This document shows positions 9,121 through 63,181 of a stretch of 64,000 nt of DNA, piece after piece. The stretch lies in the IMG/VR virus record IMGVR_UViG_3300032167_000064, positions 1 to 64,000 of that record; one strand, 5' to 3'. The first letter of the stretch is position 1, and each line of letters starts with the position of its first letter. The stretch is from an uncultured virus (IMG/VR IMGVR_UViG_3300032167_000064) (Duplodnaviria; Heunggongvirae; Uroviricota; Caudoviricetes). Both the position numbers and the translations under genes were made by a program. The notes beneath the pieces were generated by a model, which was not told the DNA's origin, searched no databases, and saw only the letters and a program-made list of their open reading frames with translations.

Positions 9121-9124
9121 TTTA

Positions 9125-9436: not shown

Positions 9437-9539
9437 AATTCTCCATCATCTATAGGAAATTTATTAATATAATTGATTTTATTTAATCATATTAATTGTA
9501 ATTGCATCAAATTTGGTACATATTGAAAGGAAGTTAAAA

Positions 9540-10106
9540 ATGAATAAAACAGAATTCTTTTATAAATATACAACAGCATCATCTGAAATGGATTATGATG
9601 AACGAATTAAAATTGAAAGAGAATCTATTGATACAAATCCTATCAATATAGGATATGGTAATAGAAATCTTATTATTGTAATGGAAGAGTGTAGTGAACT
9701 TATACAAGAGCTAATAAGTATGCAGTATGGAATTGGAGATAGATTATCTTTAATTGAAGAAACAGCCGACGTAGAACAAGGATTGGATTATGTTAAATTA
9801 ATTTGCGATATTTCTGATAATGAGATTAATTATGATGTGTCGTTTGATACAGAAATAGTGTATAATAAAGCAACGAATCCAATTGTAGCATTATCGTTAT
9901 TACAACAACAAATTTCTAAATATTTACGAAATAAATTATCTCATAAATACGATCTTATAGAAGCTGTCAAAAATGTATATATTTCTCTTGAATATATTAA
10001 ATATGCATATTCTATAGATAAAAAAGAAATCAATAAAGCTATGAATGTAAAGTTACAAAGATTAGTTGAAGTTAAACAAAATAACCCATCAGCAATATAT
10101 CAATAA
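9540..10106 (+). CDS. MazG-like nucleotide pyrophosphohydrolase
   Basis: MEECSELIQEL...LIEETADV all-alpha NTP-PPase motif. Confidence 0.65.
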   Translation: MNKTEFFYKYTTASSEMDYDERIKIERESIDTNPINIGYGNRNLIIVMEECSELIQELISMQYGIGDRLSLIEETADVEQGLDYVKLICDISDNEINYDVSFDTEIVYNKATNPIVALSLLQQQISKYLRNKLSHKYDLIEAVKNVYISLEYIKYAYSIDKKEINKAMNVKLQRLVEVKQNNPSAIYQ

Positions 10107-28887: not shown

Positions 28888-29028
28888 ATGGATAAAAATA
28901 ATATGGTGAGATTTATATCGTGTTCTCAAGCAGAATATGATAGTAGAACAAAAATAGATGATATTGATAATCTATCTAAAGAAGATTCTAGTAATAAAAA
29001 TAAAGAAGAGGAGAATAGCAAAGAATGA
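28888..29028 (+). CDS. Small protein (46 aa)
   Basis: SD ggag; ATGA overlap with polymerase. Confidence 0.45.
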   Translation: MDKNNMVRFISCSQAEYDSRTKIDDIDNLSKEDSSNKNKEEENSKE

Positions 29029-31256: not shown

Positions 31257-31346
31257 ATGCTAGATCAATAATATATTATAATATTGATAAAATAAGATTC
31301 TTGTTACATTGATATAATAGAAATACCAGAAAAGGAGGTATTAATT

Positions 31347-31484
31347 ATGGGACCGAATATTGGTTTAATTACAGAACAGGGAGACCTTGGTTTAGGTTTT
31401 GATGTCCTTAATGAAAAGGACCAGTCTACTTATCAGAATGAAAGTAATAAGAATACTGATAATGATGACAAGAATGATAAATAA
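31347..31484 (+). CDS. Small acidic protein (45 aa)
   Basis: SD aaggaggt; followed by hairpin. Confidence 0.55.
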   Translation: MGPNIGLITEQGDLGLGFDVLNEKDQSTYQNESNKNTDNDDKNDK

Positions 31485-31550
31485 GATTCTTATAGAGTCC
31501 TTAGGAGTGAAATATCTCCTAAGGATTTTAGCTTATTTTTGGTAGCAATA

Positions 31551-31688
31551 ATTTCGTTATATGTTCAATAGGGAGAACGGTTGGCTGACACCCAGCAGAA
31601 TTAAGAGAATTATGAGAGCTTAATCAAGACTTACCGGACAATGTCAAGTTTAGGTAGTATAAGTGTGGTTCGATTCCACTAACGAAAT
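31551..31688 (+). tRNA. Atypical tRNA-like RNA, anticodon GAC (Val), ~67-nt variable region
   Basis: Acceptor atttcgtta/taacgaaat, D arm tgttc/gaacg, anticodon arm gttgg-CTGACAC-ccagc, T arm gtgg-TTCGATT-ccac; no encoded CCA. Confidence 0.6.
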
Positions 31689-31737
31689 ATTGATTACATA
31701 GATGATACTATATTAACTCATTTAAGGAGGAAAAAAG

Positions 31738-32844
31738 ATGAATGCATTATTGATTGGTGTTGGTGCAGCTGGAAATAAAGCAGTTGTAACAGCAATCGAA
31801 AACGGTACTATGAAAGTCGAGGATACAGCAATTGTAAACTCAACAAGTAGAGATTTCCCTAAAGAATATCAGGGAACAAAGATTATCTTATCTGCAACAG
31901 ATACTGGTTGTGGTAAAGAGAGATCTGTAAGCAAGGCTTATACGAAGAAAGCTATCGGAGAAGGAAAGTTCAATTTCAATGAAAAGATGGCTCAGTATGC
32001 TACTGTTATTATTGTAACTTCTGTAGAAGGTGGAACAGGTTCAGGTGCTACTCCTACATTAGCTAAGTTCTTTAATAAAGTTTATACTAAGAACGTTCAT
32101 ATTATTGCTTTCACAGGCTTTGAAGATGATGTTAGAGGTCTTGCTAATACAGTAGATTTCTTTAAAGAAATTGATCCTGCTATTATTGTTCAGACTATCT
32201 CCAATGCATCTTTCTTACCTGCAGCTGGACAGAATAAGATGAAAGCAGAAGAATTGGCTAACAGAGAAATGGCTGAAAGAGTAAGAGTTCTTATTGGTAA
32301 AGACTTCATTGATGGACGTCAGAATATTGATGATACTGATATCTTGAAGTTATCTAATACTTCTGGTTATATGACCGTTGAAAAGAAGTGTTTTAGTAAA
32401 TCTCTTGAAACTAGAGATGATTTTGAGAAGATTATCAAGAATATGATCTATAATACAGCTTCTATTAAGACGAGTGATCCTGCAGCTGTAAGACTTGGTG
32501 TTATTATGAATATCAGTCCTGCATCTGAAGATGCTATTGATGGTTCATTCAAGTCTCTTAAAGCAGCTTATGGTAATCCTTTTGAATTCTTTAGTCAGAT
32601 TCAGTGGGATGGTAAAACAGAATATATTGCTTATATTGCATCCGGTATGAAGATGCCAATTGAAGAGGTTCAGGCTGTATATGAAAGATATAAAGAACAG
32701 ACAGCTAAGATTAATAAATCTGGTGATAGCTTCTTCTCTGCTATGGAAAGTATGGGAACATTAGAGGAAGATTCTAAGTTCAATATGATTAAAGAAGTAG
32801 AGAAAGGTATGTCGATCGCAGATTTTCTTAGCGAAGATGACTAA
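31738..32844 (+). CDS. Tubulin/FtsZ-family GTPase (PhuZ/TubZ-like)
   Basis: IGVGAAGNK and EGGTGSG signature. Confidence 0.9.
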   Translation: MNALLIGVGAAGNKAVVTAIENGTMKVEDTAIVNSTSRDFPKEYQGTKIILSATDTGCGKERSVSKAYTKKAIGEGKFNFNEKMAQYATVIIVTSVEGGTGSGATPTLAKFFNKVYTKNVHIIAFTGFEDDVRGLANTVDFFKEIDPAIIVQTISNASFLPAAGQNKMKAEELANREMAERVRVLIGKDFIDGRQNIDDTDILKLSNTSGYMTVEKKCFSKSLETRDDFEKIIKNMIYNTASIKTSDPAAVRLGVIMNISPASEDAIDGSFKSLKAAYGNPFEFFSQIQWDGKTEYIAYIASGMKMPIEEVQAVYERYKEQTAKINKSGDSFFSAMESMGTLEEDSKFNMIKEVEKGMSIADFLSEDD

Positions 32845-42008: not shown

Positions 42009-42704
42009 TTAAGAATAAGCTATTTGTGAATTTACTATCCATAAAATAGTAATTGTATAGTCTTGAGTAACTTCTCCAATAGCTCTAACAATCATATTTC
42101 CTGTATTATTAATAGGACCATTTGTTACAAGTCTTGTATTCCAGTCAATAGATGGAACGCATGATGTCATAATTCCTAATTGTACACCTCTTAGAGATAA
42201 TCCTTCTGTAATAACAGGTGTACAAATTATTGGTTTATCAATATTTGGTGTTAAATTTTGTACTCTATAAGTATATTCACAGCATATAACATTTCCAAAT
42301 GCTCCAAATCCATTGGATATATCAAAAGCAATATTACTACTTCCATCTAAATAACAAGTTTGATTTCCTATAGTTATAGAGACAGGATTGGTAAATTTAT
42401 TACAATATTCTGAAGTTCCATCGAAATAATATCCTCCCCAAATTCCTTTATTATAAAGATCTATTTCCATATGAGTTGATGCACCATTTACTTTTGAAGT
42501 ACCATCAGCTGAATCTATACCTATAAAACGTAATAAACCATTATAATTATCTATACATATTCCACTAATATTCTTAGATTTAGAACATGCATCTAATCTT
42601 AATTCTCCACCTTCACTACTAGTACCTTGTGGACTTATAGACAAATTACCAGCAAATAATTTAGCATTAGTATTTGCTGGTAATTTATTAGCTAAATCAT
42701 TATT
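42009..42704 (-). CDS. Start-less tail-fibre cassette C5
   Basis: Site at 42692-42702; NNDLANKLPAN...; only an SD-less TTG upstream; shares SEGG.L.L.A..DNYNG with C9. Confidence 0.75.
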   Translation of the reverse strand, partial: NNDLANKLPANTNAKLFAGNLSISPQGTSSEGGELRLDACSKSKNISGICIDNYNGLLRFIGIDSADGTSKVNGASTHMEIDLYNKGIWGGYYFDGTSEYCNKFTNPVSITIGNQTCYLDGSSNIAFDISNGFGAFGNVICCEYTYRVQNLTPNIDKPIICTPVITEGLSLRGVQLGIMTSCVPSIDWNTRLVTNGPINNTGNMIVRAIGEVTQDYTITILWIVNSQIAYS

Positions 42705-42763: not shown

Positions 42764-43624
42764 ATGGATAAAACAATAAAAGGGAAATTGGTATCTGAAG
42801 AATTAAGAAAAAAGATTAAAGAAGAAGTTGACTTTATAAAAGAATCAAACAAAGAAGATATTACTTTGGCAATTATTCAAGTTGGAGATGATCAAGCTTC
42901 TTCTACATATGTCAGAAATAAAACTAAAGCTTGTAATGAAGTCGGTATCAAATACTGTGATTATAAGATGGATAAATATATAGATTCGTCTGATATTATA
43001 AATCTCATTAAACAATTAAATGCTTCCGAAGACATAACAGGTATATTGGTACAATTGCCCCTACCTCGTCATATTGATGAAGCTAAAGTTTTACAAAGTA
43101 TAGATCCGCTAAAGGATGTAGATTGTTTCAATTATTCCAATATAGGAAGATTATATACAGGTAATCCTAGATTCTTACCTTGCACTCCTGCTGGAATTAT
43201 CGAATTATGTAAGTATTATAATATCGAACTTGCAGGAAAAGAATGTGTAATAATAGGTAGATCTAATATTGTAGGTAAACCATTAGCAGCGATGATGACT
43301 GCTCAAAATGCTACAGTTACATTAGCTCATTCTAAAACAGAAAATTTAGAAGAAGTATGTAAACGAGCTGATATTATTGTATCTGCAATTGGTTGTGCTA
43401 AGTTTATTAATAAAGATTATATTAAACCTGGAGCTGTAATTATAGATGTAGGTATCAATAGAGATCATAATAATAAACTCTGTGGAGATGTTGATTTTGA
43501 TGATGTTTATGATATTTGTGATTGTATAACTCCCGTACCTGGTGGAGTTGGTCCTATGACTATAACTATGCTTTTAAGAAATTGCATTAAAGCTTATAAT
43601 TATCAAATTAGTATTGAAGATTAG
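42764..43624 (+). CDS. folD: Methylene-THF dehydrogenase/cyclohydrolase
   Basis: GILVQLPLP, KDVD, PCTP, GRSNIVGKP, TPVPGGVGPMT. Confidence 0.95.
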   Translation: MDKTIKGKLVSEELRKKIKEEVDFIKESNKEDITLAIIQVGDDQASSTYVRNKTKACNEVGIKYCDYKMDKYIDSSDIINLIKQLNASEDITGILVQLPLPRHIDEAKVLQSIDPLKDVDCFNYSNIGRLYTGNPRFLPCTPAGIIELCKYYNIELAGKECVIIGRSNIVGKPLAAMMTAQNATVTLAHSKTENLEEVCKRADIIVSAIGCAKFINKDYIKPGAVIIDVGINRDHNNKLCGDVDFDDVYDICDCITPVPGGVGPMTITMLLRNCIKAYNYQISIED

Positions 43625-43633
43625 GAGTATAAT

Positions 43634-44611
43634 ATGTTTGCAAATACATTAATTTATGAAAACGATGGTCAAGTAAATATATCAGAGGGTATAAAATATA
43701 TAGATCAAACTATCACAAATTATCTATATGCTACCAAGATCAAATTATCACTTGCTATTATTTATATTATGGATGATAATGGGGAATATGAATATACTGT
43801 AAGGGAAATGAAAAAGATAATAGAATCTCATGGGATAAAAGTAGATTGTTTTAATTATGATACTGATACTAAAACAGATATTATTATTAATAAAATTGAA
43901 GAATGTAATAAATCATATACTGGTATCTATATCGTAAATCTTAGAAAGTCTGTATATGATATTAGATATTTTAGAAATCTTATTAATAAAGATAAATGTA
44001 TTGATGGTTATCATGAATCTAATATTGCAGATATGATATTCTATGATTATGATACTTATCATGACTATTTCTATCCACCTGATGTATTTTTGGTCAGAAA
44101 AATACTTGAAAATATGGATAGTGATAAAAAGATTAATGTTACTAGGGTTAGCAAGATATTAATTTTGGAAGATTTTAAAAAAGTTAATCCTAGTATGAAA
44201 ATATTAAGTACTATATTATCACATTCTGGTTTACCATCTATGTATTACCAGTACTCCTCTAATAATACCGCTTTAACAGAATATCTTAAAGAAGCTGATA
44301 TTATAATAGCAGATATTGATGCTGCAAGATATTTAAAATTTGATATGATACATGATCCAGAGTATCTAGTTGAAAGAGATAGAGTTGTTATAGATCTTGG
44401 ATGTAAAAGAGAAGGATGTAAAACTCATGGTAATCTTGATCTAAAGAGTATGAAAGAGAATAATACAATTTTATCAGAAAATGGTTGGACTCCTGTTAGA
44501 TTTGTAGAATCTAAAGATATGTATAATATTACTTTGATATCTGATTGTTTAATTAATAATTTGATTATTGCTTATCATAAACAAAATGAAGATACATATC
44601 CGTTGAAATAA
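43634..44611 (+). CDS. Divergent FolD-like paralog
   Basis: KCIDG, ADIII, VIDLG remnants; canonical motifs degraded. Confidence 0.55.
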   Translation: MFANTLIYENDGQVNISEGIKYIDQTITNYLYATKIKLSLAIIYIMDDNGEYEYTVREMKKIIESHGIKVDCFNYDTDTKTDIIINKIEECNKSYTGIYIVNLRKSVYDIRYFRNLINKDKCIDGYHESNIADMIFYDYDTYHDYFYPPDVFLVRKILENMDSDKKINVTRVSKILILEDFKKVNPSMKILSTILSHSGLPSMYYQYSSNNTALTEYLKEADIIIADIDAARYLKFDMIHDPEYLVERDRVVIDLGCKREGCKTHGNLDLKSMKENNTILSENGWTPVRFVESKDMYNITLISDCLINNLIIAYHKQNEDTYPLK

Positions 44612-45861: not shown

Positions 45862-46161
45862 TTAAATTAAATAAGTTGTACAAATACTAAATCCAGTGAT
45901 ATTTTCCATAAAGAAAACTTTTAATATACCGGATGTTTCTATTCCACAATAACCAACAACAAAACGATCAGCTACTTGTGCAATTGCGAGAAATTGTAGT
46001 CCATTTTTTGGACATATATCAGTAGATAATGTACATATTGTAGTCCATGTTTTTGCCTGTATATTAATATTACTAATAACTACAGCAATGGTAACTGCAT
46101 TTCTACATTTAAATGTTCTTATACCTGACATGGGAACAGAAATTTCTACAGCTAAATCATT
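45862..46161 (-). CDS. Start-less fibre-tip cassette C6
   Basis: Site at 46152-46162; NDLAVEISVP in frame with ORF 45862..46131. Confidence 0.75.
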   Translation of the reverse strand, partial: NDLAVEISVPMSGIRTFKCRNAVTIAVVISNINIQAKTWTTICTLSTDICPKNGLQFLAIAQVADRFVVGYCGIETSGILKVFFMENITGFSICTTYLI

Positions 46162-46183
46162 ATAAATATTAATAATGATTTAG
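46152..46183. repeat. 32-bp near-perfect palindrome (head-to-head cassette sites)
   Basis: CTAAATCATTATA-AATATT-AATAATGATTTAG. Confidence 0.9.
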
Positions 46184-46662
46184 TTGATTATAGTAATGGT
46201 ACTAAGATAGTAGGTAAAGCTACTAGTGCTACATCAGCATTATATTGTGGAAGTGCTGGAAGTGCTGGTAAAGCTACTTCTGCTACTAGTGCTAGATATG
46301 CTACTACAGCTACTAATGCTGGTACATCTAACTATGCTAAGAATGCTCCTACTTATCAAGGTGCTACTACTGCAGCTGCTGGTGTAAAAGGATTAGTACC
46401 TGCAGCTACTACTGCAACTAAAGATAACTTTTTAAGAGGTGATGGTACGTGGGCTACACCTAGTAAAGCTACTAGTGCAACATCAGCAACATATTCATCT
46501 ACTGCTAATTATGCTAAGAATGCTGGTACTGCTAGTTATTCTAGCAATGGTGCAAAAGCTAGTTCTGCTACATCTGCTACATATGCAGCTACTGCTAATT
46601 ATGCTAAGAAGAGTAATATTAGTATGAGTGTATCTGGTACTACTCTTACTATTACATTTTAA
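46171..46662 (+). CDS. Start-less tail-fibre cassette C7 (163 aa)
   Basis: Site at 46173-46183; KATSATSA repeats and GLVPAA...FLRGDGTW fibre repeat; missing from ORF track. Confidence 0.8.
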   Translation, partial: NNDLVDYSNGTKIVGKATSATSALYCGSAGSAGKATSATSARYATTATNAGTSNYAKNAPTYQGATTAAAGVKGLVPAATTATKDNFLRGDGTWATPSKATSATSATYSSTANYAKNAGTASYSSNGAKASSATSATYAATANYAKKSNISMSVSGTTLTITF

Positions 46663-46674
46663 AGAGGTGATAGT

Positions 46675-47061
46675 ATGAGTATAAAAGTTAATGGAACTGA
46701 AATACCGGTTTCTGGTACTATAAAAGCAAATAATACTAATATTACAAAAGTTGTTGCTAATGGAATTACAGTATGGAGCAAATCTACTCCAAAATCATAT
46801 TCTTTACATATTAGCGGAGAACCATTCTATACATCAGATTCGGTAACAATTTCTGGTATAGATACTTCTGTATATACAAAAGCTACGCTTAAAATTTGGG
46901 GAGATAATTTTGGTTGGGATACTAATGGATCTCATGTTATTTGGTTAAATACTTATTACACGGAAGAAGGTACTTTTAATGTTCCTGTAGGTAACGGTAC
47001 TTTAACACTTGTATTAGGACATGATAATGCTACTGTAGATTGTACTTTAACATTTTCTTAA
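46675..47061 (+). CDS. Fibre partner / receptor-binding subunit following C7
   Basis: SD gaggtg; KVVANGITVWS N-terminal motif shared with 54582..55205. Confidence 0.6.
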   Translation: MSIKVNGTEIPVSGTIKANNTNITKVVANGITVWSKSTPKSYSLHISGEPFYTSDSVTISGIDTSVYTKATLKIWGDNFGWDTNGSHVIWLNTYYTEEGTFNVPVGNGTLTLVLGHDNATVDCTLTFS

Positions 47062-47137
47062 GTTATGTGTTCGCTTTATAAAATCACAAAGTTCTCTAGG
47101 ATTTATCATCCTAGAGAACAATTTCTTTATAAATATT

Positions 47138-48289
47138 AATAATGATTTAGCTGGATATGGATCAGGTACTAAAGTAGCAGCTAAAGCAACATCTGCTACT
47201 AGTGCTACTTATAGTTCTACTGCTAACTATGCTAAGAATGCTGGTTCTGCATCTAAAGCTACTAGTGCTACATCAGCAACATATGCTACTACTGCTACTA
47301 ATGCTGGTTCTGCATCTAAAGCTACATCTGCTACTAGTGCTACTTATAGTAGTACTGCTAATTATGCTAAAGCTGTACCTAGTACTGTAGCTAGTAGAAT
47401 TAGTACATTAGAAACGTCTTTTCGGGATGGCTGTAATACAATAATGCAGGCAGTTACAGCCAAAGGACAAACTCCTGCATCAAATAGTCCTACTGATATT
47501 GCTACTGCTATTTCTGGTATTGGAGAGGGATTTTATAACGCAGAATTAGTATATAGAGCTACTAAATCTTCAAGTGCTTCCAAAGAACTAACTGTATCAG
47601 ATACTTATACTTTGAAAGAAAGCGGATATTATTTAGCATTTCTTGGAGGATTTAGTTCAACTCTTAACACAGCATATACGGTACCAAATACATCATCATT
47701 ATTATATAATTCAAGTGCATCATTTACATCGGATGGTAATACAATAGTATATGGTCAAGGTGCAGGTGGTGGTACAATTCATGATTATTCAAAATATGCT
47801 ATTTTTTCTGGAGTCAAAGATAAAACGATTTCTTTTAATAAGTATATTAAATCAGATTACTATAACGTCTGTGCTGCAACTGCATTTGGATTATTTAGAG
47901 TTGAACAGGGTACATCGTTACTGTATAAAACATATAAAACAGGAACTGCTAAAGAAAAAGTTACTATAAGTGCTAGCTACAATATTAGTACAGCTGGTAA
48001 ATATCTTGTAATAGCAGCAAGTCATGGTGCTGCTGTAAATGCAGGATATACAGATGCAATAACAGGTATCAAAACAACTATTAAATTCAATGATAATGTA
48101 GTAATTGATCTTCCTGTTAATGAAAAAATGAATGTGAATTCCGGAAATAATCAAGGTTCAATATCTTCTGATGTAGAATATGCTTTTGTAGAAGGAACAG
48201 GAACTGTTTATGTAGAAAGATATTATTGTACACATAATACTTATACTGCTTTTGCTTCACTTGAATTATTTATATTTAAAATTGGATAA
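47138..48289 (+). CDS. Start-less tail-fibre cassette C8
   Basis: Site at 47140-47150; NNDLAGYGSGTK + S/T/A repeats in frame with ORF 47444..48289. Confidence 0.8.
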   Translation, partial: NNDLAGYGSGTKVAAKATSATSATYSSTANYAKNAGSASKATSATSATYATTATNAGSASKATSATSATYSSTANYAKAVPSTVASRISTLETSFRDGCNTIMQAVTAKGQTPASNSPTDIATAISGIGEGFYNAELVYRATKSSSASKELTVSDTYTLKESGYYLAFLGGFSSTLNTAYTVPNTSSLLYNSSASFTSDGNTIVYGQGAGGGTIHDYSKYAIFSGVKDKTISFNKYIKSDYYNVCAATAFGLFRVEQGTSLLYKTYKTGTAKEKVTISASYNISTAGKYLVIAASHGAAVNAGYTDAITGIKTTIKFNDNVVIDLPVNEKMNVNSGNNQGSISSDVEYAFVEGTGTVYVERYYCTHNTYTAFASLELFIFKIG

Positions 48290-48301
48290 TTACACTTATT
48301 T

Positions 48302-48328
48302 CCCAGTAGACTGATAAAGTCTACTGGG
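48302..48328. terminator. Terminator-like hairpin after C8
   Basis: Identical to 45825-45851. Confidence 0.75.
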
Positions 48329-48355
48329 ATTATCTTTGTCTAATTAGAAAATTTC

Positions 48356-48375
48356 AATTATATATTATAATTATG
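48356..48375 (+). promoter_or_regulatory. Early-promoter-like motif
   Basis: Identical to 19288-19307. Confidence 0.6.
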
Positions 48376-48441
48376 AAAGTAATGGAAATATAAACTTAGA
48401 TACCACTTTCAGATTATCAATCAAGGAGGAAAAAATAAGGA

Positions 48442-49053
48442 ATGAAATTAACAAGTGTTGAAAGAACTATTTATGCTCTTTATGAGCTCGATGGATTAAG
48501 CTTCGCTCAAATTTCAAAAACTGTAGATTTATCTTCATCTGCAGTTAGAGAGAAATATAATAAGACTAAGCGTGTTGTAGAAGCTGAGAAAAATGATCCT
48601 ATAGCAAAATTAAATATCGATTATTCTACTTACATGAAATTATGTAAAGCTAGAAACCATAGTGAAAGAAATACAGAACTTGGTATAGATCTTTATACTA
48701 TTGAAGGTTTGATTGAAGCTGTTAATGATAGATTTGAGACTTATAATCATACTCTGTATTTTGACATTATATCACCTATTGTTATCAAGAACCTTATTGA
48801 AGCATTGGAAGAAGCAGGATATGAGTTAAAAGATAATCATCTTGATATTGGATTAAGCTTGACTTCTGATTTAATTTGTCTAAGATCCGAAAGATATATA
48901 GAGTTTGATATTATAGATACAAGTGGGATTTTCAAATGTGAATCAGACGGAACCAATGGTAAATTGTTTTTTGCCAAACAAACTAAGTATCCTAAGGATG
49001 AAATTCAGAAACAAATAATCCATCTTATGAAAGAAGAAGGATATATATTATAA
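48442..49053 (+). CDS. Sigma70 region-4-like HTH protein
   Basis: LTSVERTIYAL...LSFAQIS..VDLSSSAVR. Confidence 0.6.
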   Translation: MKLTSVERTIYALYELDGLSFAQISKTVDLSSSAVREKYNKTKRVVEAEKNDPIAKLNIDYSTYMKLCKARNHSERNTELGIDLYTIEGLIEAVNDRFETYNHTLYFDIISPIVIKNLIEALEEAGYELKDNHLDIGLSLTSDLICLRSERYIEFDIIDTSGIFKCESDGTNGKLFFAKQTKYPKDEIQKQIIHLMKEEGYIL

Positions 49054-49065
49054 GGAGGGACAAAT

Positions 49066-49659
49066 ATGAAACATTTTACAATTCATACATGTGATTTTTG
49101 TGGTTATCAAAGTAGTAATTATGATCACATGAGAAAGCACGAAGCAGAACATCTTGGTCTTACTGTTGAGGAAATGGAATCTTATAATTCTTTAAAATCG
49201 TTTGCTGCATATATGGGTTCTGTGATAGCAGAGAAAAATAACGATGAGACTAAAAAGAAGTTTGATGAAGCTGTTGAAAAGTTGGTTGCTTTTGAAAAAG
49301 AGCATGGTATTGAAAATGGTAAACGTATAGAACCAAATACAGACAGCGAGAATCCAAAATTTACATGGAGCGATAAAGAAGATCCTGAGTTATATCATAA
49401 CGGTAAAACTATTTTATGGGTATCTGGTAGAAGTGCTGCTATTCAGAAATTTGTTGAAGCATTGAGTTATAAAATCTGTAGTAAATGTGACTTTTCATAT
49501 ACTGCAGGAAGAGCACATATTGATGTATTTAAAGATGCTGTTTCCAAAGCTCTGGTAGCTATTAATGACGAGGAATTTATGAAACAGTTTATAGTTCCTT
49601 ACTCAAGAGAAGCATATGACAATGAAACATATTTTGAACCATTAAATATGGGACCATAG
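49066..49659 (+). CDS. C2H2-like Zn-finger hypothetical protein
   Basis: CDFC...HEAEH. Confidence 0.6.
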   Translation: MKHFTIHTCDFCGYQSSNYDHMRKHEAEHLGLTVEEMESYNSLKSFAAYMGSVIAEKNNDETKKKFDEAVEKLVAFEKEHGIENGKRIEPNTDSENPKFTWSDKEDPELYHNGKTILWVSGRSAAIQKFVEALSYKICSKCDFSYTAGRAHIDVFKDAVSKALVAINDEEFMKQFIVPYSREAYDNETYFEPLNMGP

Positions 49660-49671
49660 GAGGACAAAATT

Positions 49672-50037
49672 ATGGTAGGATATAGAATTTATTTTGATGG
49701 TGAAAAGTTCGCCATGGATGATCATAAATCTCAGGTAGGAAATACACTGGTAGATGGAGTAGTACATTGGAATGCTGGATATGATACGGCAATTCAAGCA
49801 GTAGAAAACCATAATAATCATCTCAAAAAGAATATTAAAGATCTAAAAGATGACAAAGATTTTGTAGTTAAAAATTGTAAGGATTGTGGCAATTTCTATA
49901 TAATCACAAAAATATATGCTGATTGGTTCCTGGAAAGAAAGTTAAAGGTGCCTTGTAGATGTGATTTATGTCGAATGAGACGCAAGTACAATAATAGAAA
50001 ATCTGAAGATGTACAGACAGGAAAGAGTGGTGTATAA
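49672..50037 (+). CDS. Zinc-ribbon protein
   Basis: CKDCG...WF...P.RC..CR. Confidence 0.65.
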   Translation: MVGYRIYFDGEKFAMDDHKSQVGNTLVDGVVHWNAGYDTAIQAVENHNNHLKKNIKDLKDDKDFVVKNCKDCGNFYIITKIYADWFLERKLKVPCRCDLCRMRRKYNNRKSEDVQTGKSGV

Positions 50038-50039
50038 AC

Positions 50040-50807
50040 ATGATGCTCAAAATAACAGAAAGATGTACAATGGGATGTACTCATTGTCTCAATAATGCTC
50101 AACCTGATGGAAAAGATATGACGGAGGCTGTCTTTATTGACAGCCTCAACTTTTTGAAGAATAACAATGTTGGTAAATTTTTGGTTTTAAGTGGAGGAGA
50201 ACCTACAGAACATAGAAATTTTGATAAAATGATGAATGTTCTTATTCAGTGGTGTCAACAAAATAGAGGATATATAATGTCTCTTACTATAACAACAAAT
50301 GGAGAAAATATACAGAATAATCCAGAACAGTATAGGACTTATATTGAAAAGCTGAAAGAAACAGGTACAGTTTTAACATATCAAGTATCTGCTGATGTAA
50401 GATATTATCCTCGTAGAATTCAAACACATAAACGGATTTTTAGAGAACCAGGATTTGTTTTATGCGATGATTGTGTTGAAGCTATTTATCCAAAAGGTAG
50501 AGCATTAGAAAATAATATTCCTTGGAACAGAATTAGTTCTCAGTGTTTTAATGTGAGAGCTTTGTCAAAGCAGGGTAATGATAGTTTGTCAGAAATTGAA
50601 TATATTTTAGGATCTAGAGGAAAGATATGTACTCCTCATATTGGAATTGATGGCAGTATTAAACTTGGTGAATCGGACCTTTGTCCTCCATGTACTTCCA
50701 TTTATGATGATTCTAATATAATTATGGAAAAGATTCGAAACTTTAAATGTTCTGGTTGCAATCATATTAATGATAATTTGCCTGAAGAATACAAGAAATT
50801 TTTATAA
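50040..50807 (+). CDS. Radical SAM protein
   Basis: CTMGCTHC, SGGEPT, TTNG. Confidence 0.85.
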   Translation: MMLKITERCTMGCTHCLNNAQPDGKDMTEAVFIDSLNFLKNNNVGKFLVLSGGEPTEHRNFDKMMNVLIQWCQQNRGYIMSLTITTNGENIQNNPEQYRTYIEKLKETGTVLTYQVSADVRYYPRRIQTHKRIFREPGFVLCDDCVEAIYPKGRALENNIPWNRISSQCFNVRALSKQGNDSLSEIEYILGSRGKICTPHIGIDGSIKLGESDLCPPCTSIYDDSNIIMEKIRNFKCSGCNHINDNLPEEYKKFL

Positions 50808-50853
50808 TAAAGATCCCCTAGTAGTGTTAAACTACTAGGGGTTTATTTTTTGT

Positions 50854-52662
50854 TTAACCATACTGAATAGCACTTGATTTTGTAATTACTGTTGTTGATA
50901 ATACTTTTGTTAAAGCATATAATGCTTGCATACTATCTGCACCAGGTTCTCTAAGAGGAGCTCCACCGAATGTAATAAAGTTCTGTTTACTATTCATAAA
51001 TGCATCTAACTCAGCGTTTGCTTCTCTTGTATATACACCTTTACATGTACACTGATCACCGTCATAGTCACCACCTATACCTGCAAGATAAGTATTACTA
51101 AATCTTAAAGTATCCACAAAAGTATTAGAAGTATTTTTTCCAATATCTTCTTCTCTAATTTTAGGATACCATTTATAAGTTACTCCATTATACTCAATAA
51201 CTTCCATCTCTTTAGTAGAAGAAACTTCTACCTTAGTAGCAAATTGGTTACTAAAATAATCTATTGGAAATCTGGTAATCAATATATGCTTATCTTTTAC
51301 AGCTTCTACACAAGCCATATAGAAAACATCACACCAAGTAAGTCTTCTCTGAGCAAGAGGATGACCATCATTTGGTCTATTGGCAGGATCTACTCCTCTT
51401 CCTTTAAACTGCATATAATATACTTCATCAGTTCCTTCTACAGGAATCTCTATAGGAACAAATCTGTTATTGTATCCATGTAAGAATCTATCCATTTCTT
51501 TTTTGATTCTTTCATCAGAGAAAACTATCTCAGGATTCTCAGGAACTATTACCTTAGTAGCACCAGATTTGGTAACTACAGGATAGGTATGAGATCCAAT
51601 AAACTCATTTTCAAAGAATTGTCTAGTATGGTACATAACAAAATCTCTGAACTGAGTAATAGCAGCATATAAAGGTACTGCTGATTTATCATAAGTAACC
51701 ATTAATTCTTCAGGTCTATCTGCAGACTTAAGATCAACCGGTGAAATAACTAATCTTGATGAGAAGTTAGCAGTCTTAGAAAGATTAGTTCTTCTCATGA
51801 TACCAAGTTTACCAGACATACCCTGTCCAGAATCTTTCTTATCAAGATTATTGTTACTATTACCACAGAACCAGTCATATATTGTCAAGATATATTCCTG
51901 AACTCTACCATTCATAGCATCAGAAGCATCAATTCCATATTCCTGAGTAGCAGTTAAAGCATTTGCAGATACGATAAGATTATTATAAATCTTATTAATA
52001 CCACCAAGTCCAACTACTTTACGAGAACTAGAAGCTGAGTTCTTATCTCTATAGAATGGAGGAATTACAATATATTTCTTGATAAACATATTATGTCTAT
52101 TCTGTTCAAGATACTTAAGAGATAAAGCTTTGGATTTAGAATTAGTCTTTCTGAATTGAACTTTATCAATATTCTTATGAAGCCAAGCTAATCCAGTATC
52201 TCCATTTTCTTCATCTTCTACAAAGTTTCCCTCGTCATCAATGATATAAAATTTGGTACCATGTACAATATTTCTTACCTTAGGATCTAATCTAATCCAA
52301 GTCTTATAACAAGATGGATCCAAGAACCATCCATGTAAATCAATATATCCAAAGGTACCCATTCTTTCTTCCATAGTAAATCCGAAAATCTCATTTGACA
52401 ATAATCCATCTTTACTAGGAATATTAGAACCACTAAAAGCTCTAGGATTAGATACACATTTGATATTATTCTTCTTGACATATAATTCAATATCAAGAAT
52501 ATCAAGTTTAAGTCTTTCTACGACTTTATCATACTGACCTTCTTCCATGTCTAATCCTTCAATAAACATATCAGCTTCATTCAAGAATTCGCTCATATCC
52601 ATATATAAATCAGAATACATTGCTAATTCTGAAAGTATAGCTTTTGTTGATAATTTAGCCAT
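50854..52662 (-). CDS. Multisubunit phage RNA polymerase beta' subunit (catalytic part)
   Basis: GLLSNEIFG, FGYIDL, VIPP.YR, GKLG.MR, SRLVI, TRFP, GGDYDGD. Confidence 0.9.
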   Translation of the reverse strand: MAKLSTKAILSELAMYSDLYMDMSEFLNEADMFIEGLDMEEGQYDKVVERLKLDILDIELYVKKNNIKCVSNPRAFSGSNIPSKDGLLSNEIFGFTMEERMGTFGYIDLHGWFLDPSCYKTWIRLDPKVRNIVHGTKFYIIDDEGNFVEDEENGDTGLAWLHKNIDKVQFRKTNSKSKALSLKYLEQNRHNMFIKKYIVIPPFYRDKNSASSSRKVVGLGGINKIYNNLIVSANALTATQEYGIDASDAMNGRVQEYILTIYDWFCGNSNNNLDKKDSGQGMSGKLGIMRRTNLSKTANFSSRLVISPVDLKSADRPEELMVTYDKSAVPLYAAITQFRDFVMYHTRQFFENEFIGSHTYPVVTKSGATKVIVPENPEIVFSDERIKKEMDRFLHGYNNRFVPIEIPVEGTDEVYYMQFKGRGVDPANRPNDGHPLAQRRLTWCDVFYMACVEAVKDKHILITRFPIDYFSNQFATKVEVSSTKEMEVIEYNGVTYKWYPKIREEDIGKNTSNTFVDTLRFSNTYLAGIGGDYDGDQCTCKGVYTREANAELDAFMNSKQNFITFGGAPLREPGADSMQALYALTKVLSTTVITKSSAIQYG

Positions 52663-52680
52663 GATTATTCTCCTTTTTGA

Positions 52681-53304
52681 TTAATAAGTTACATAAAGAC
52701 AACCTTCGTCACCATCACCTGTTGTAACAGAAACATCAAGAACTTTTTCCAATTCTTCACCAATACTATAAATAATACCGTGTAATTTAATTCTGATTTC
52801 CTGATTATCATTACAAATCTCAAAAATAACTTCTTTATGTCCATTTTTATATTCGTTTTCTTCAAAGATATGACAAACTAATTTATGAGCTTTTAATCTT
52901 TTAAGTTCTGCAACAACTTTAGGATCATTATTATATCTACGAACAATAATCATTAGCTGTTTTTTAATTTCAACAACATTTGTCTGTTTTCTATTTGCCC
53001 ATCTTTCTTCTGCTCTTTTTGTATTATATTCTGTAAGAATTTTAGCTACTTCACTTCTCATCTTTGATGCTTTTCTATCAACATATGGTAACATTTCTAT
53101 GATCTTTTTATTTTTATCATAGAAGTCTACACATTCTTTACATTTTTGCTCATCTTTTGTTTTTATAGCTTCTTTGTAAAGTTTCTTAAAAGCTGTCCAA
53201 GCTTTATATGGCTCGATAAGTTCTTTCTTAATTGATCCGTCAAACAAACCAGATTCGTAAATAGATTCTCTTTTTTGTTCTATAAGTTCATCTATATAAT
53301 TCAT
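52681..53304 (-). CDS. Hypothetical protein
   Basis: SD aaggaggt; directly upstream of the RNAP subunit. Confidence 0.65.
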   Translation of the reverse strand: MNYIDELIEQKRESIYESGLFDGSIKKELIEPYKAWTAFKKLYKEAIKTKDEQKCKECVDFYDKNKKIIEMLPYVDRKASKMRSEVAKILTEYNTKRAEERWANRKQTNVVEIKKQLMIIVRRYNNDPKVVAELKRLKAHKLVCHIFEENEYKNGHKEVIFEICNDNQEIRIKLHGIIYSIGEELEKVLDVSVTTGDGDEGCLYVTY

Positions 53305-53432
53305 TATCAAAACCTCCTTTATATTCAATTATAAGAATGTAGAAAGATTAGCCTTTTAAAAGAAAATAAAGATAATTCAATTTCTATCATCATTTTTACT
53401 TTATATTAATATAGTAAAAAGGAGACTTTTAT

Positions 53433-54005
53433 ATGAAAAATATATTCAGAAAAAAGAAAAATGGAAAGATTTATAATACTGATTTTGGTCTTGATAAAAT
53501 TCTTATATATGATTCAGATAAGGCATCTGAATTTAACAGAGATAAACATTATTTTGAATCTTGGGGTTATAAAGTTAAGAAGATTATTTTATGTGATAAT
53601 GGATCCATTAAATTATTAGCAGTTCTTAAAAAGAAAGTGTTGTATAGATGTCTATTAGATAGTCAGAAAGTTGACCCTCAAGATAGAGTTAGACCTTATG
53701 GTGGAACACATCCTGATTATTGTGTATATTATAAAGATGGAGTATGTACATGTGTCAATCCAAAACATTGTTTATATCAGGAAACTAGTCATCATGTTTC
53801 AATTATTAAAGATATGGTACAAAGATATGAAGACCATACAAAAAATGATATTGATTTTTATAATAAAGATCGTACATATTATGAAGATACAAAATTGGGA
53901 AGAATCTTTTCTGAACAATATGATCATCTTAATGCTAAAGATAATGAGGATAAGAAGCAATTTGTATATCGTAGAGGTGTATATAGAAATGATAGAAGAT
54001 GCTAG
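53433..54005 (+). CDS. Hypothetical protein
   Basis: SD aaggag. Confidence 0.6.
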   Translation: MKNIFRKKKNGKIYNTDFGLDKILIYDSDKASEFNRDKHYFESWGYKVKKIILCDNGSIKLLAVLKKKVLYRCLLDSQKVDPQDRVRPYGGTHPDYCVYYKDGVCTCVNPKHCLYQETSHHVSIIKDMVQRYEDHTKNDIDFYNKDRTYYEDTKLGRIFSEQYDHLNAKDNEDKKQFVYRRGVYRNDRRC

Positions 54006-54045
54006 TAGAGTGATAAACTCTACTAGCTCTTTTGTTGGTCGTATT

Positions 54046-54495
54046 TTAATATGTTTCTATTGTATTAGGAGAATCAAATTCCATCTGAGCTTCATCCAAT
54101 CCAGATGTTGCATTATCTAATGCATTCTGCATAAACTCGTCCATATCTCCACTAGCATCAATTTGTTCAATCTCATCCTGAGTCATATTATATTTATGAG
54201 TAAGCATCATCATCTTCTCATTATAATCTAATCTGACTTTGGCAGATTCTTCATACATACCCATTCTAAGTTTATACTGATTTTCACTTCCAGCTTTCTT
54301 AGAATACCATACAAGATTAGAACCAAATATACCACCAGTTACAGTAACAACAGTAGCAAGTAAAGTTACATCATACATATTCTGAATATTACCAGAAATA
54401 TATAACCAAAATACTAATGCAATTACAGATATGAAAATGAGTGCACTACATAACAACATTCCTTTAGACCAGGTTACTTTTTTCTCATGTTTCAT
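54046..54495 (-). CDS. Two-TM membrane protein (holin-like)
   Basis: Two hydrophobic helices followed by Y.KKA..EN. Confidence 0.55.
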   Translation of the reverse strand: MKHEKKVTWSKGMLLCSALIFISVIALVFWLYISGNIQNMYDVTLLATVVTVTGGIFGSNLVWYSKKAGSENQYKLRMGMYEESAKVRLDYNEKMMMLTHKYNMTQDEIEQIDASGDMDEFMQNALDNATSGLDEAQMEFDSPNTIETY

Positions 54496-54581
54496 AAATA
54501 ATACCATCCTTTCCAATATCTTGGGATATTTATTATATTATTTATTAGTTCAAATTTCATATCTGTAGAGTGATTAAACAT

Positions 54582-55205
54582 TTAAGTTGTCATATAAATT
54601 TCTGATATCATCACTTCTACTGTTCTATTTATAGTAGTAAACACTATATGAGGAACATAATCACCAGAAAGATCCTCTATATCAAATTCTAAAATAAAAG
54701 ATCCAGGTACATGACTAGTAGCACATCTATCAAGTTGATCTACTACATTAGGATTCATTTCGCCATCATACTCAATTTTACTATTTTTAATACCAAACAT
54801 TAACCAGTTATCATAATATCCATCATCAAAAGTAGCATATACTACACTCATAACCATTCTCTTATAATTAGATACATTTATTGGAGGTAAAGTTATAAAA
54901 TAACCAGCAGCATCAAAAGAATATTCAGGAGACTCTGCATTCATATGTAAGACTTTCCCATACGATGAATGATTTAAATATTGATAATTCTGATTACCAG
55001 ATGAACTACCTACTGCAAAATTTATCTCCTTGATTTCAGGTTGACCATAAAAATTGTTATTATTAAACATATATTGTTTATTAACTGTATTTCCACTCCA
55101 AACAGTGTTACCGTTAAAATTTACTTTTGATAAACTTCCTATATGAGAACCTTTCCAAATAAGATTAACATTTGTAGGAGAATTATTCTTTATTAATAAC
55201 GCCAT
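54582..55205 (-). CDS. Fibre partner / receptor-binding subunit following C9
   Basis: SD ggaggagg; KVNFNGNTVWS motif; beta-rich C-domain resembling C11 tip. Confidence 0.6.
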   Translation of the reverse strand: MALLIKNNSPTNVNLIWKGSHIGSLSKVNFNGNTVWSGNTVNKQYMFNNNNFYGQPEIKEINFAVGSSSGNQNYQYLNHSSYGKVLHMNAESPEYSFDAAGYFITLPPINVSNYKRMVMSVVYATFDDGYYDNWLMFGIKNSKIEYDGEMNPNVVDQLDRCATSHVPGSFILEFDIEDLSGDYVPHIVFTTINRTVEVMISEIYMTT

Positions 55206-55221
55206 AAATAATCCTCCTCCC

Positions 55222-55968
55222 TTAAATATTAATATTTAAAGTATTTGTAGAAGTATCGTAATTGAAACAAGCATCGTCAATCATTCTTCTCCAACCGCTC
55301 CATGTAGAATCGTGTTTATATCTAACATGCATAGTTCTTTGGAATGAATAACATCCCCAAGCAATTTGTACAGCTCTATTTCCTGCAGGAGCTCCTACTG
55401 TAAGAACTTCATACCAAGCTGCATCGGGAAACTGAGGACTGGGTTCGTTGTCAATAGGTGAATTTCTAACTACATAACAGAGTTTATTCCAACATTTATG
55501 TCCTACTGTCATAGAATTAGAAAATATATCTGTAGATGTAGTATTTTCTCTCAAACTATTTACATTACTTGCACTAGATGCATATGTAGCACTAGTAGCA
55601 GAAGTAGCTTTGCTAGCAGTACCTGCACTGGTTGCTGTAGTAGCATATCTTGCACTAGTAGCAGATGTAGCTTTAGTAGATATACCTTTAAATGTATATA
55701 ATTGAGAGTCATCTGAATGTATAGTTCTAGAATAAGGATCAATATGTAATACAGTATTACCTGTTTTTGAATTATCTTTTGGTGCAATGCCAAAAATTCT
55801 AAATACCCCATTATAGTTATCAAGAGATATACCATTCATAGATGAATTGTCATCTGGAGCTTCTAAATCCAATTGTCCACCTTCAGATCCTCCTGTCTGA
55901 GGTTTTATATTTATAAGTCCTCCAAATATACGTCCACCATTAATACCAAATTTCTTAGCTAAATCATT
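55222..55968 (-). CDS. Start-less tail-fibre cassette C9
   Basis: Site at 55959-55969; NDLAKKFG...; KATSATSA repeats; AVQIA...HDSTWSGW knob-like region. Confidence 0.8.
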   Translation of the reverse strand, partial: NDLAKKFGINGGRIFGGLINIKPQTGGSEGGQLDLEAPDDNSSMNGISLDNYNGVFRIFGIAPKDNSKTGNTVLHIDPYSRTIHSDDSQLYTFKGISTKATSATSARYATTATSAGTASKATSATSATYASSASNVNSLRENTTSTDIFSNSMTVGHKCWNKLCYVVRNSPIDNEPSPQFPDAAWYEVLTVGAPAGNRAVQIAWGCYSFQRTMHVRYKHDSTWSGWRRMIDDACFNYDTSTNTLNINI

Positions 55969-56025
55969 AATAATAATTATTCTTCTAGGTTAATATTAAC
56001 CTAGAAGAATAATTTAAGTGTAAAA

Positions 56026-56631
56026 TTAATGAGCAGCTGCAGGTTCAGTAGTCCATCTATAATATATAGTCCAAGTTGTAGTAGAAGATACATCATTACC
56101 ATTTAAATATGCATTATGAAGTGAAAAACTATCTCCAGCATTATTTATTTTAAAATCAGCAAAACCTCCATTAGAAGAATTTTGGAAATATCCAGCTCTT
56201 ATTTTTGTAAGTTCAGGTACAAGAAATTGTTTTCTTTCATTATGATATACATATGGAATATGTACAGAAACAGCAACATTATCATTATTATCTAACTTAG
56301 CAGTTATAATAACCTCATAAATATTAACACCAACACTCATACCTAAAGTTGAACATGTAACTTTGCCGGTAAGTGCCGAAATTTTATTCCATCTATGCAA
56401 ATATCTTGTCATATCATTATTTACATCTATATATCCTAAATTATTATTATCAACATATAATTTGACTTTAGTACATAGATTATTCATACTATCATATTCA
56501 AATGAAACGGCGTTATCGGTTCTACTTGTAGTTACAAATCCTGTGCCGCTATTGCCACCTTTGCATACAGATGATACTAACATTTTTTCTGTATCATTTA
56601 CATAATTTTCAATAGAATCTAAATCATTATT
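56026..56631 (-). CDS. Start-less fibre cassette C10
   Basis: Site at 56619-56629; NNDLDSIENY in frame with ORF 56026..56583. Confidence 0.75.
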   Translation of the reverse strand, partial: NNDLDSIENYVNDTEKMLVSSVCKGGNSGTGFVTTSRTDNAVSFEYDSMNNLCTKVKLYVDNNNLGYIDVNNDMTRYLHRWNKISALTGKVTCSTLGMSVGVNIYEVIITAKLDNNDNVAVSVHIPYVYHNERKQFLVPELTKIRAGYFQNSSNGGFADFKINNAGDSFSLHNAYLNGNDVSSTTTWTIYYRWTTEPAAAH

Positions 56632-56650
56632 AATATTAATAATGATTTAG
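56619..56650. repeat. Perfect 32-bp palindrome (head-to-head cassette sites)
   Basis: CTAAATCATTATT-AATATT-AATAATGATTTAG. Confidence 0.95.
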
Positions 56651-57648
56651 CTGGATATGGTAGTGGTACTAAAGTAGCAGCTAAAGCTACATCTGCTACT
56701 AGTGCTAGATATGCAACAACATCAACAAGTGCTGGATCTGCATCTAAAGCTACTAGTGCTACATCTGCAACATATGCTACTACAGCTACTAATGCTGGTA
56801 CTAGTAACTATGCTAAGAATGCTCCTACTTATCAAGGTGCTACTACTGCAGCAGCTGGTGTAAAAGGATTAGTACCTGCAGCTACTACTGCTACTAAAGA
56901 TAGTTTCTTACGTGGCGATGGTAAATGGGCTACACCTAGTAAAGCTACATCTGCTACTAGTGCTACTTATTCTAGTACTGCTAATTATGCTAAGAATGCT
57001 CCTCAATATAAAGGTGCTACAACAGCTGCAGCAGGAACTAAAGGATTAGTACCTGCAGCTACTACTGCTACTAGAAACTACTTTTTAAGAGGAGATGGTA
57101 TATGGGCTATGCCTTCGGCTTCTGCAGTAGAAGGTAATGTAAGATACAATGAAACTTCAGATAAACTTGAAATATATTATGAAGGAGAATGGATATCAGT
57201 ATTATCTTGTGGTTTACAAACAATAAATTTGATTGGAACAGATTATACTTATCAAGAAGTATCTACAGCAAATCCTACATATTCTTTAACATTTTCAAAT
57301 GGTATTAATTTACAATATAATAGAACTTCACAAGCATGGGGACATTGTTTAGTAAAAAAATCTACATTTGTTGATCTTACTGCATTTGAAAATCTATATG
57401 TTACTTATAGTGGAACATATACTACTAGTACTGATAGTGATTATAATAAAATTGATATTCAATTTTATAATGAATCAGATGTTTGTATTTGGGAACAACG
57501 AATTACAGATAATGGAAAATCAACATTTACAAATGTTACGAAATCATTTGATATTAGTACTTTGCAAGGAAGATGTAGAATATGTTTCAAAGTAAATGCA
57601 AACGGTAGCAATATGACATTAAATGTATCCAGTTTGTATGTAGACTAA
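56638..57648 (+). CDS. Start-less tail-fibre cassette C11
   Basis: Site at 56640-56650; two GLVPAA..FLRGDG.W repeats, in frame with ORF 57109..57648. Confidence 0.8.
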   Translation, partial: NNDLAGYGSGTKVAAKATSATSARYATTSTSAGSASKATSATSATYATTATNAGTSNYAKNAPTYQGATTAAAGVKGLVPAATTATKDSFLRGDGKWATPSKATSATSATYSSTANYAKNAPQYKGATTAAAGTKGLVPAATTATRNYFLRGDGIWAMPSASAVEGNVRYNETSDKLEIYYEGEWISVLSCGLQTINLIGTDYTYQEVSTANPTYSLTFSNGINLQYNRTSQAWGHCLVKKSTFVDLTAFENLYVTYSGTYTTSTDSDYNKIDIQFYNESDVCIWEQRITDNGKSTFTNVTKSFDISTLQGRCRICFKVNANGSNMTLNVSSLYVD

Positions 57649-62454: not shown

Positions 62455-62518
62455 AGATAACACCTCCTTCTTTGGTTACTTACTAAGATGTATACAAGAG
62501 GTTTCTAATAAGAACTAT

Positions 62519-63181
62519 AATGATTTAGCTGGGTATGGTAATGGTAGCAAAGTAGCAGCTAAAGCTACTAGTGCTACATCAGCAGTATATTCTTCTACTA
62601 CTAACTATGCTAAAGCTAGTGCTGGTGCTACTACTGCATCTAAAGCTACATCTGCTACTAGTGCTACTTATTCTAGTACTGCTAATTATGCTAAAGCTAT
62701 ACCATCTACGATAACTACTAGATTAACAAATCTTGAAACGTCTTTTCAGGATGGCTGTAATACAATAATGCAGGCAGTTACAGCCAAAGGACAAACTCCT
62801 GCATCAAATAGTCCTACTGATATTGCTGCTGCTATAAATGCAATTCCTAATATATCAACAATATATGGAGATATAGTTGCTGGAGTTGGTGGATATAAAT
62901 CAACTAAAATAACAGCTGTCAATGCTGCTCATTTTTGTAATCAGGAATATTTATTAAATAGATCTGATGGGCAATGGGATGTATTAAAAGCTGGAACTTA
63001 TAGAGTTGCAATGTATTCACAGAATTCATATGTTTATTTTTCAGTAAATGGTACACAGACAAATTTAAAGTTTGGTCAACAATATATAGACTTTAATTTA
63101 AAGGTAGGAGATATTGTTTGTTTTTATCGAGATATATCTCAAGCAATGTATTGTTGCGGATATATTTGTTATATAGGATAA
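62519..63181 (+). CDS. Start-less tail-fibre cassette C12
   Basis: Site at 62518-62528; NDLAGYGNGSK; shares a 93-nt block with C8. Confidence 0.8.
   Translation, partial: NDLAGYGNGSKVAAKATSATSAVYSSTTNYAKASAGATTASKATSATSATYSSTANYAKAIPSTITTRLTNLETSFQDGCNTIMQAVTAKGQTPASNSPTDIAAAINAIPNISTIYGDIVAGVGGYKSTKITAVNAAHFCNQEYLLNRSDGQWDVLKAGTYRVAMYSQNSYVYFSVNGTQTNLKFGQQYIDFNLKVGDIVCFYRDISQAMYCCGYICYIG

Follow-up and report, generated by a model that had tools for sequence, protein, structure and literature searches.

Start-less cassettes headed by a common site

The 64,000-nucleotide stretch analysed here (the window) comprises positions 1-64,000 of G000, a 124-kb record of the uncultured Caudoviricetes virus IMGVR_UViG_3300032167_000064, and contains a short repeated site that heads a series of reading frames lacking start codons. 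The repeated element is the core TAATGATTTAG, with 13 exact copies in the window. When up to one mismatch was allowed, 17 core matches were found in the window, compared with 7.0 ± 2.8 in shuffled sequence, and none of 100 shuffles reached 17; over the whole record, AATGATTTAG occurs exactly 16 times, compared with a mean of 1.5 and a maximum of 4 in 60 approximate dinucleotide shuffles. All 16 exact cores lead in the same register into an open frame that starts N-D-L and has no in-frame methionine upstream. Fifteen of these frames are 79-382 codons long and one runs off the contig end, and all 15 complete cassettes of the record are intact reading frames. The cassettes of the window are as follows (lengths in amino acids, aa):

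184-424 (+): site and start-less cassette, 79 aa, the stop codon of which abuts the next site
425-710 (+): site and start-less cassette, 94 aa
23186-23555 (+): site and start-less cassette, 122 aa; in record G004, this site's left flank adjoins the right flank of the empty site
42009-42702 (-): solo site and start-less cassette, 230 aa
45862-46161 (-): start-less cassette, 99 aa, left member of head-to-head pair 1
46174-47061 (+): start-less cassette, 162 aa; behind it lies a partner gene (46675-47061), which starts MSIKVNGTEIP... and has a ribosome-binding site (RBS) of its own
47091-48289 (+): terminator-like hairpin (47091-47119), solo site (47140) and start-less cassette, 382 aa
54582-55969 (-): site (55959-55969), start-less cassette of 248 aa (55222-55968) and partner gene (54582-55205)
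56026-56628 (-): start-less cassette, 200 aa, left member of head-to-head pair 2
56641-57648 (+): start-less cassette, 335 aa, with an Ala/Thr/Ser repeat stalk and a unique tip
62518-63181 (+): site and start-less cassette, 220 aa
63220-63994 (-): site and start-less cassette, 257 aa

The last of these (site 63993) closes a tandem array, the other members of which (65544 and 64913) lie beyond the window, and in such arrays 0-8 bases separate a stop codon from the site that follows. Several silent sites have a terminator-like hairpin in front of them; terminators are enriched (19 versus 2.6), and a promoter scan stayed at chance level (39 versus 35.5). Many cassettes have low-complexity repeats in common. 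None of the window cassettes has a Pfam match, and an ESM Atlas search with two cassettes returned only leads, all scoring under 0.9.

G000 is a genome fragment (51% complete). Records G001-G004 are 100% identical over their overlaps, the recombinant junctions described below excepted, and the overlapping records, which come from several assemblies, appear to join across a 195-bp repeat into a circle of about 278 kb. Twenty sites lie within about 98 kb of this circle (26 listed sites minus 6 chance words): one expression site, one empty site (site A) and 18 sites heading silent C-terminal parts, hereafter tips. Relative to the expression site, eight are in the opposite and 11 in the same orientation, at distances of 1.2-94 kb, with core genes between them. 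The site is asymmetric, as the site list, the column counts and the protein-level entropy all indicate: the core and the right arm are conserved and the left arm is variable.

Six tips, the expressed one included, have similar ends, and behind each stands a partner gene that carries an RBS of its own. The partner genes (window 46675-47061 and 54582-55205; L024:5222-5821, 6341-6856 and 9025-9606) form a family with an MSIK.N.TEIP start and a variable C-terminus, and their product is probably a second tip subunit that is switched along with the cassette. The 195-bp repeat is perfect (window 46566-46760 and L024:6232-6426) and spans a cassette end and a partner-gene start; it breaks assemblies, gives G001 false inverted terminal repeats and could possibly serve as a second exchange point through homologous recombination. 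The hairpin and flank found ahead of site 5903 recur at L024:9616-9685, there with no core after them.

Expression locus and homologue family

One gene, L024:4289-5206, carries the core behind a head with a start codon. It lies in a tail-fibre cluster (G003, G004) and has an RBS and a constant head of 125 aa, with the core in frame at codon 126. The gene itself has no Pfam match; it matches a tail-fibre PHROG (E-value 2e-6), and it is 45% identical over 60 aa to the Mtd_N protein encoded by its upstream neighbour. In the AlphaFold2 model of the anchor, a helix (residues 103-128) runs across the junction between head and tip, and the mean predicted local distance difference test score is 86.5. 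The head had no match in GTDB genomes or INPHARED phages.

The best 120 of 258 head homologues were used for comparison, and 111 of them have xN followed across the junction by N[DE], after which the tails are unrelated. Columns 124-127 have an entropy of 0.3-0.7 bits; the value rises to 1.5 at position 128 and to 3.4-3.9 for all columns after it. Identical heads occur with different tails (e.g., P0069/74/76 and P0088/89/90), a 14-member cluster with heads at least 95% alike contains 13 tail groups, and P0001 combines the 129-aa head of this phage with another tip. At the DNA level, the junction CTAAAT-AATGA is kept in relatives and the base that follows varies (L041, L044). With at least 111 related proteins from many lineages sharing the same junction, this is a widespread family. 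Some homologues are without the junction (e.g., L049-L051 and G009), so the switch proposed below would be a trait of a subset. G009 has such a head and no intact recombinase, and weak, stop-interrupted recombinase matches, possibly a decayed gene, were seen in phages without the junction (G009:146343-146630 and G008:22295-22582).

The empty site is conserved in three phages. To its right, an AT-rich conserved non-coding element was noted in three phages (L033:2850-3484, corresponding to about 20.9-21.5 kb of G002; L070; L072). Within it, 14-bp repeats in inverted orientation are separated by 275-335 bases, and several shorter motifs recur. The element lies upstream of the structural module and could be an origin, a set of accessory binding sites or an invertible promoter. 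Cassette detection in G017 and G008 was not above that of control words, and G017 thus supports one or two cassettes beside the empty site, not dispersal. In the relative G018, two related start-less cassettes (L075:10381(+) and 13434(-)) convergently flank the same RNA polymerase gene as in the window.

Natural recombinant junctions

Two junctions between different sites were found in the records of this phage. The first, J1, lies at the start of the window:

1-103 (-): junction J1, with the core at 91-101 and the first 33 codons of the tip NDLANKQNK...

At J1 (window position 100, minus strand), the left side is identical to empty site A of G002 in 4516 of 4516 bases compared, and the right side to the tip expressed in G003 and G004 (100/100 bases). 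The second, J2, lies at the end of G004; its left side is identical to window site 23187 (114/114 bases) and its right side to empty site A (1086/1086 bases). Around the core, the parents share bases only at positions -3 to +9 and -4 to +9, a stretch of 12-13 bases that begins after AATATT, so the exchange took place there and not in AATATT. Because site A and site 23187 are inverted and 23 kb apart, J2 corresponds to one inversion, and at the assembly level it reads as the natural inversion product of a 23-kb segment.

Alternatively, the cassettes could form a static library, with junctions that arose in the course of evolution through homologous or microhomology recombination or that are library or assembly chimeras. 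Both junctions do lie at contig ends (with 100 and 114 bases of overhang) and not in long reads, they are known from assembled contigs and not raw reads, and the low-complexity repeats common to many cassettes could favour such events. We regard this explanation as improbable all the same, since each of two different junctions, from two records, falls exactly within the 12-13-base core, identical heads carry unrelated tails in many lineages, and all the complete cassettes of G000 have remained intact. The words used in assembly are usually longer than 12-13 bases.

Head-to-head sites and the crossover position

Some sites stand back to back and form palindromes:

46152-46183: head-to-head pair 1, two cores back to back in a near-perfect palindrome, with 10 bp between the TAATGA words
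56619-56650: head-to-head pair 2, a perfect 32-bp palindrome
55975-56014: terminator-like 40-bp palindrome between cassette 56628(-) and site 55968(-)

A reading of the sequence alone (the sequence-only reading) had taken each 32-mer for a single loxP- or dif-like site, with 13-bp arms, a symmetric 6-bp AATATT spacer in which crossover falls, and one half-site contributed by each of the two cassettes served. Its description of the palindromes was accurate: that at 56619-56650 is perfect, that at 46152-46183 has one mismatched pair and differs from the other by one base, and the solo sites 42692(-) and 47140(+) have AATATT-AA directly before the core. The shared geometry was borne out in part. 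The 32-bp span recurs in a third head-to-head pair, located a little beyond the window (65535-65566), and is thus found in all three tight pairs of this phage, each with 10 bp between its two TAATGA words, but the centre of this third pair is ATTATT. In the relative G017, 3 bases instead of 10 separate these words in an apparent head-to-head pair, the variable spacing that the sequence-only reading itself had named as a refuting outcome. AATATT occupies positions -9 to -4 at seven of the 20 true sites, and it is also the centre of the 55975-56014 palindrome, which is unrelated to the sites.

The proposed position of the crossover was not supported. The spacer is not common to the recombining partners, the expression site having ACACTA at this position, site A ATTCTT and site 23187 AATACT, and in both natural recombinants AATATT (-9 to -4) stays with the left parent, the crossover falling at -3 to +9 or -4 to +9. 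Moreover, the residue before N-D is never isoleucine or tyrosine in the 120 expressed homologues, yet ATT or TAT stands there at five of 19 non-expression sites, although protein-level selection could also be the cause. A cut exactly at the border of spacer and arm, requiring no spacer homology, would fit J1 and J2, but is disfavoured by this same absence of isoleucine and tyrosine at the -1 codon. Despite the dyad, the constant span and the recurrent AATATT, the single two-armed site is therefore a highly improbable account of the 32-mers. What stands of the sequence-only reading is that recombination signals head the cassettes and that a tyrosine recombinase is the best candidate for acting on them; the 32-mer as one 13-6-13 site is not supported. 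Each cassette is better read as headed by a full asymmetric site and not a half-site, and each palindrome as two independent asymmetric sites back to back that share an AT-rich left flank. In the available portion of PMC5430464, R64 shufflon segments consist of an open reading frame (ORF) with a repeat at each end, an arrangement from which we infer that back-to-back sites are to be expected. The palindromes are a feature of cassette packing and not the crossover site.

Candidate recombinase

No match to the tyrosine recombinase family PF00589 or the serine resolvase family PF00239 was found in G000. The sole PF00589 match in G001-G004 is a tyrosine recombinase in G001, just beyond G000; PF00239 was found in none of G000, G001, G002 and G004, and no other site-specific recombinase family was detected among 135 further ORFs. 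The enzyme is intact, keeps the catalytic residues R-K-HxxR-H-Y and passes the XerA cut-off (223 versus 220 bits). It comprises 359 aa, has an N-terminal extension, ends about 17 residues after the catalytic tyrosine, and has no Rci-type extra C-terminal domain. A homologue of 61% identity is encoded in G017, which has the same empty site and conserved non-coding element (the element is also present in G019), and the subfamily of 73 homologues is distinct from the enzymes of relatives that have no cassettes.

The phage XerA-like enzyme is likely to catalyse the switch. It is unlikely, though conceivable, that the switch is real and is catalysed by a host XerC/D-type enzyme or an unrecognised phage protein, with the phage enzyme only resolving genome multimers. 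Between the gene and the nearest site are 64 kb, and the expression site is about 120 kb away; tyrosine recombinases (33-38% identical) are also encoded by five of six near-complete relatives without the expression gene, and most scanned ORFs are without a Pfam family (72 + 135 ORFs); the presence of a recombinase is, taken alone, weak evidence. Against another catalyst stand the phage enzyme's position as the only PF00589 match, the absence of serine resolvases from the records named above and the separate subfamily. In addition, the longest contig for P0003 (the head with another tip) and that for P0121 (a 96% identical enzyme) both measure 103,589 bases, and this agreement in length alone suggests that one contig carries both.

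Proposed switch and its alternatives

Combining the above analyses, we consider site-specific tip switching at the core very likely and long-range inversion by the phage enzyme likely, and the system as a whole is probably a dispersed multi-cassette switch for the C-terminal, presumably host-binding, part of one tail-fibre-like protein, with inversion by this enzyme as its main route. One gene would provide the RBS and the start codon, together with a constant anchor of 125 aa that has a helix at its end, and about 19 alternative tips would be available, the silent ones stored elsewhere without start codons, several behind terminator-like hairpins, and each with the same asymmetric site at its head. 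By conservative site-specific recombination in the shared core, the anchor would be fused in frame to another tip, with the partner gene, where present, travelling along. The overlap is most likely the 6-bp TAATGA, around which the expression site has the dyad CTAAA/TTTAG; this placement is bounded by the crossover interval of J1 and J2, the CTAAAT-AATGA of relatives and the absence of isoleucine and tyrosine before N-D. The main route would be inversion of segments of tens of kilobases between opposed sites, both silent-to-silent and silent-to-expression, with the enzyme acting at a distance, so that eight tips would be one inversion away from expression and the other ten two.

Several observations, besides the contig-end position of the junctions and the recombinases of relatives, weigh against this reading. 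The conserved arms are only 5-6 bp long. Foldseek found no match to the anchor model at E ≤ 0.001, the best being a streptococcal phage tail fibre (E-value 0.026), and only six of 86 scanned homologues have a Pfam match (H-type lectin, S74 chaperone, Gp10_C, DUF6273 twice and FGE-sulfatase). Among the matches listed in a DNA scan of viral contigs, no reciprocal product of J1 or J2 turned up, and none of the 80 loci retrieved was this phage; in scans with 16-17-base patterns, the 31 matches were mostly chance, and only this phage and G019 were relevant. Contigs from four runs (X1, X2, X3 and X10; three faecal runs from 2018 and one bovine gut run), placed on L024, gave no listed joint at any site. 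Their depth is low and noisy, at about 3-23, and a single contig of X2 ends at 4675, the position of the expression site, which is a weak hint only.

The two sites joined in J1 are in direct orientation, and four inversions would be needed in a reduced seven-site model to place all the junctions of G000 on one circle, although for J1 as a junction two inversions suffice. This bears on a further possibility, namely that the same switch relies chiefly on cassette circles that are excised and re-inserted between directly oriented sites, or on exchange between copies of the genome within one infected cell (an integron-like or concatemer route), with inversion secondary. By reasoning, excision of the expressed tip and its insertion at site A would yield G000 in two steps. 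The tandem arrays with closely abutting stop codons, the conserved empty site and the dyad of the expression site would suit such a route, symmetric sfx sites being reported to allow excision in the available part of PMC11852207. However, excision cannot produce J2, the G000 record may reflect the route of an assembler through a mixed population and not one molecule, and the sites occur in both orientations; an integron-like route is further disfavoured by the score of the enzyme far below the integron-integrase (TIGR02249) cut-off (77 versus 265 bits). We therefore think it doubtful that excision or exchange between copies is the main route, and prefer inversion by the phage enzyme.

Extending this to the clade, we lean towards a picture in which a clade of gut jumbo phages uses about one-third of the chromosome as a shufflon, a distant XerA-like enzyme recombining some 20 eleven-base sites and flipping blocks of 23-94 kb that hold essential genes, and possibly parking excised tips at the conserved empty site by the non-coding element. 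One phage would then exist as many genome isomers with different host-binding tips. Such a switch would explain the fragmentation of assemblies, G000, G004, G018 and G019 all ending at or near sites, and would make the tips a natural library of receptor-binding parts that can be exchanged on one anchor. It would also make testable how a short-armed tyrosine recombinase chooses its partner over tens of kilobases, and whether deletion is avoided.

Genomic setting

The runs that hold this phage are animal faecal and bovine gut metagenomes. The genome carries the jumbo-phage markers tubulin, a divergent DNA polymerase and a multi-subunit RNA polymerase, encoded in the window as follows:

29025-32844 (+): divergent family-B DNA polymerase and tubulin genes, between sites (Pfam PF20286, PF00091)
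50854-52662 (-): RNA polymerase subunit gene, between the convergent sites 47141(+) and 55968(-) (PHROG 2986, E-value 4e-71)

The RNA polymerase subunit is about 30% identical to subunits of the Firmicutes jumbo phages LPJP1, BpSp and SA1. Two tandem FolD-like genes, one well conserved and the other diverged, occupy 42764-44611 of the window, and L081:5970-6353 encodes a protein with a Tad2-like anti-Thoeris domain. No reverse transcriptase family, as a diversity-generating retroelement would require, was found among the 72 + 135 ORFs scanned, which cover the 30-kb structural module only in part.

Comparison with known systems

The comparisons below draw on the available portions of the cited papers. 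The R64/IncI shufflon (Rci, sfx, PilV) resembles the present system in its constant N-terminus, silent C-terminal ORFs, tyrosine recombinase and asymmetric site, sfx having a conserved core and right arm and a variable left arm (PMC11852207). Unlike R64, the 20 sites described here spread over about 98 kb among polymerase, terminase and tail genes, the enzyme is encoded at least 64 kb away and is without the extra C-terminal domain of Rci, the conserved site is only about 11 bp, and an empty site and two-gene cassettes are present. The Rin shufflon of bifidobacterial prophages has 11-bp asymmetric rix sites and an XerD-like armless tyrosine recombinase, and it likewise acts on a phage receptor-binding protein with a constant head, variable tips and tandem direct sites (PMC6109161). 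Rin, however, is a compact locus of five tips with a flanking invertase in a temperate phage, whereas the sites here are spread through a jumbo-phage genome of about 278 kb, and the tips, about 19 in number, have many different lengths and unrelated folds.

The Min (p15B), Gin (Mu) and Cin (P1) systems also switch tail-fibre tips through DNA inversion (PMC6109161), but use a serine invertase adjoining a compact segment, and no PF00239 match was found here. With loxP and dif (Cre, XerCD, XerA), the system shares an enzyme scoring as XerA-like and, we infer, a 6-bp overlap; unlike them, the 32-mer is not one two-armed, centrally crossing site, and the true site is short-armed and present in many copies. 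A published scan for programmed inversions covered only bacteria, according to the available part of PMC9881135, the word 'inversion' does not occur in the available text of a jumbo-phage review (PMC7824862), and no dispersed switch in a jumbo phage was found in the literature covered, most subscription journals lying outside that coverage.

Described phage host-range switches are compact, with a handful of tips and an adjacent enzyme; here about 19 tips extend over one-third of the genome, and essential genes are apparently rearranged for the sake of tip use. A constant 5' part with in-frame silent 3' ends, an asymmetric site and, at the assembly level, a natural inversion product (J2) are features of a shufflon, but the cassettes do not form a compact contiguous block and the recombinase gene does not adjoin one, and for these two reasons we do not file the system as a shufflon member, although it would work much like R64 and Rin. 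It is best regarded as a dispersed, genome-scale, shufflon-like host-range switch, the spread-out counterpart of the compact switches of small phages and plasmids.

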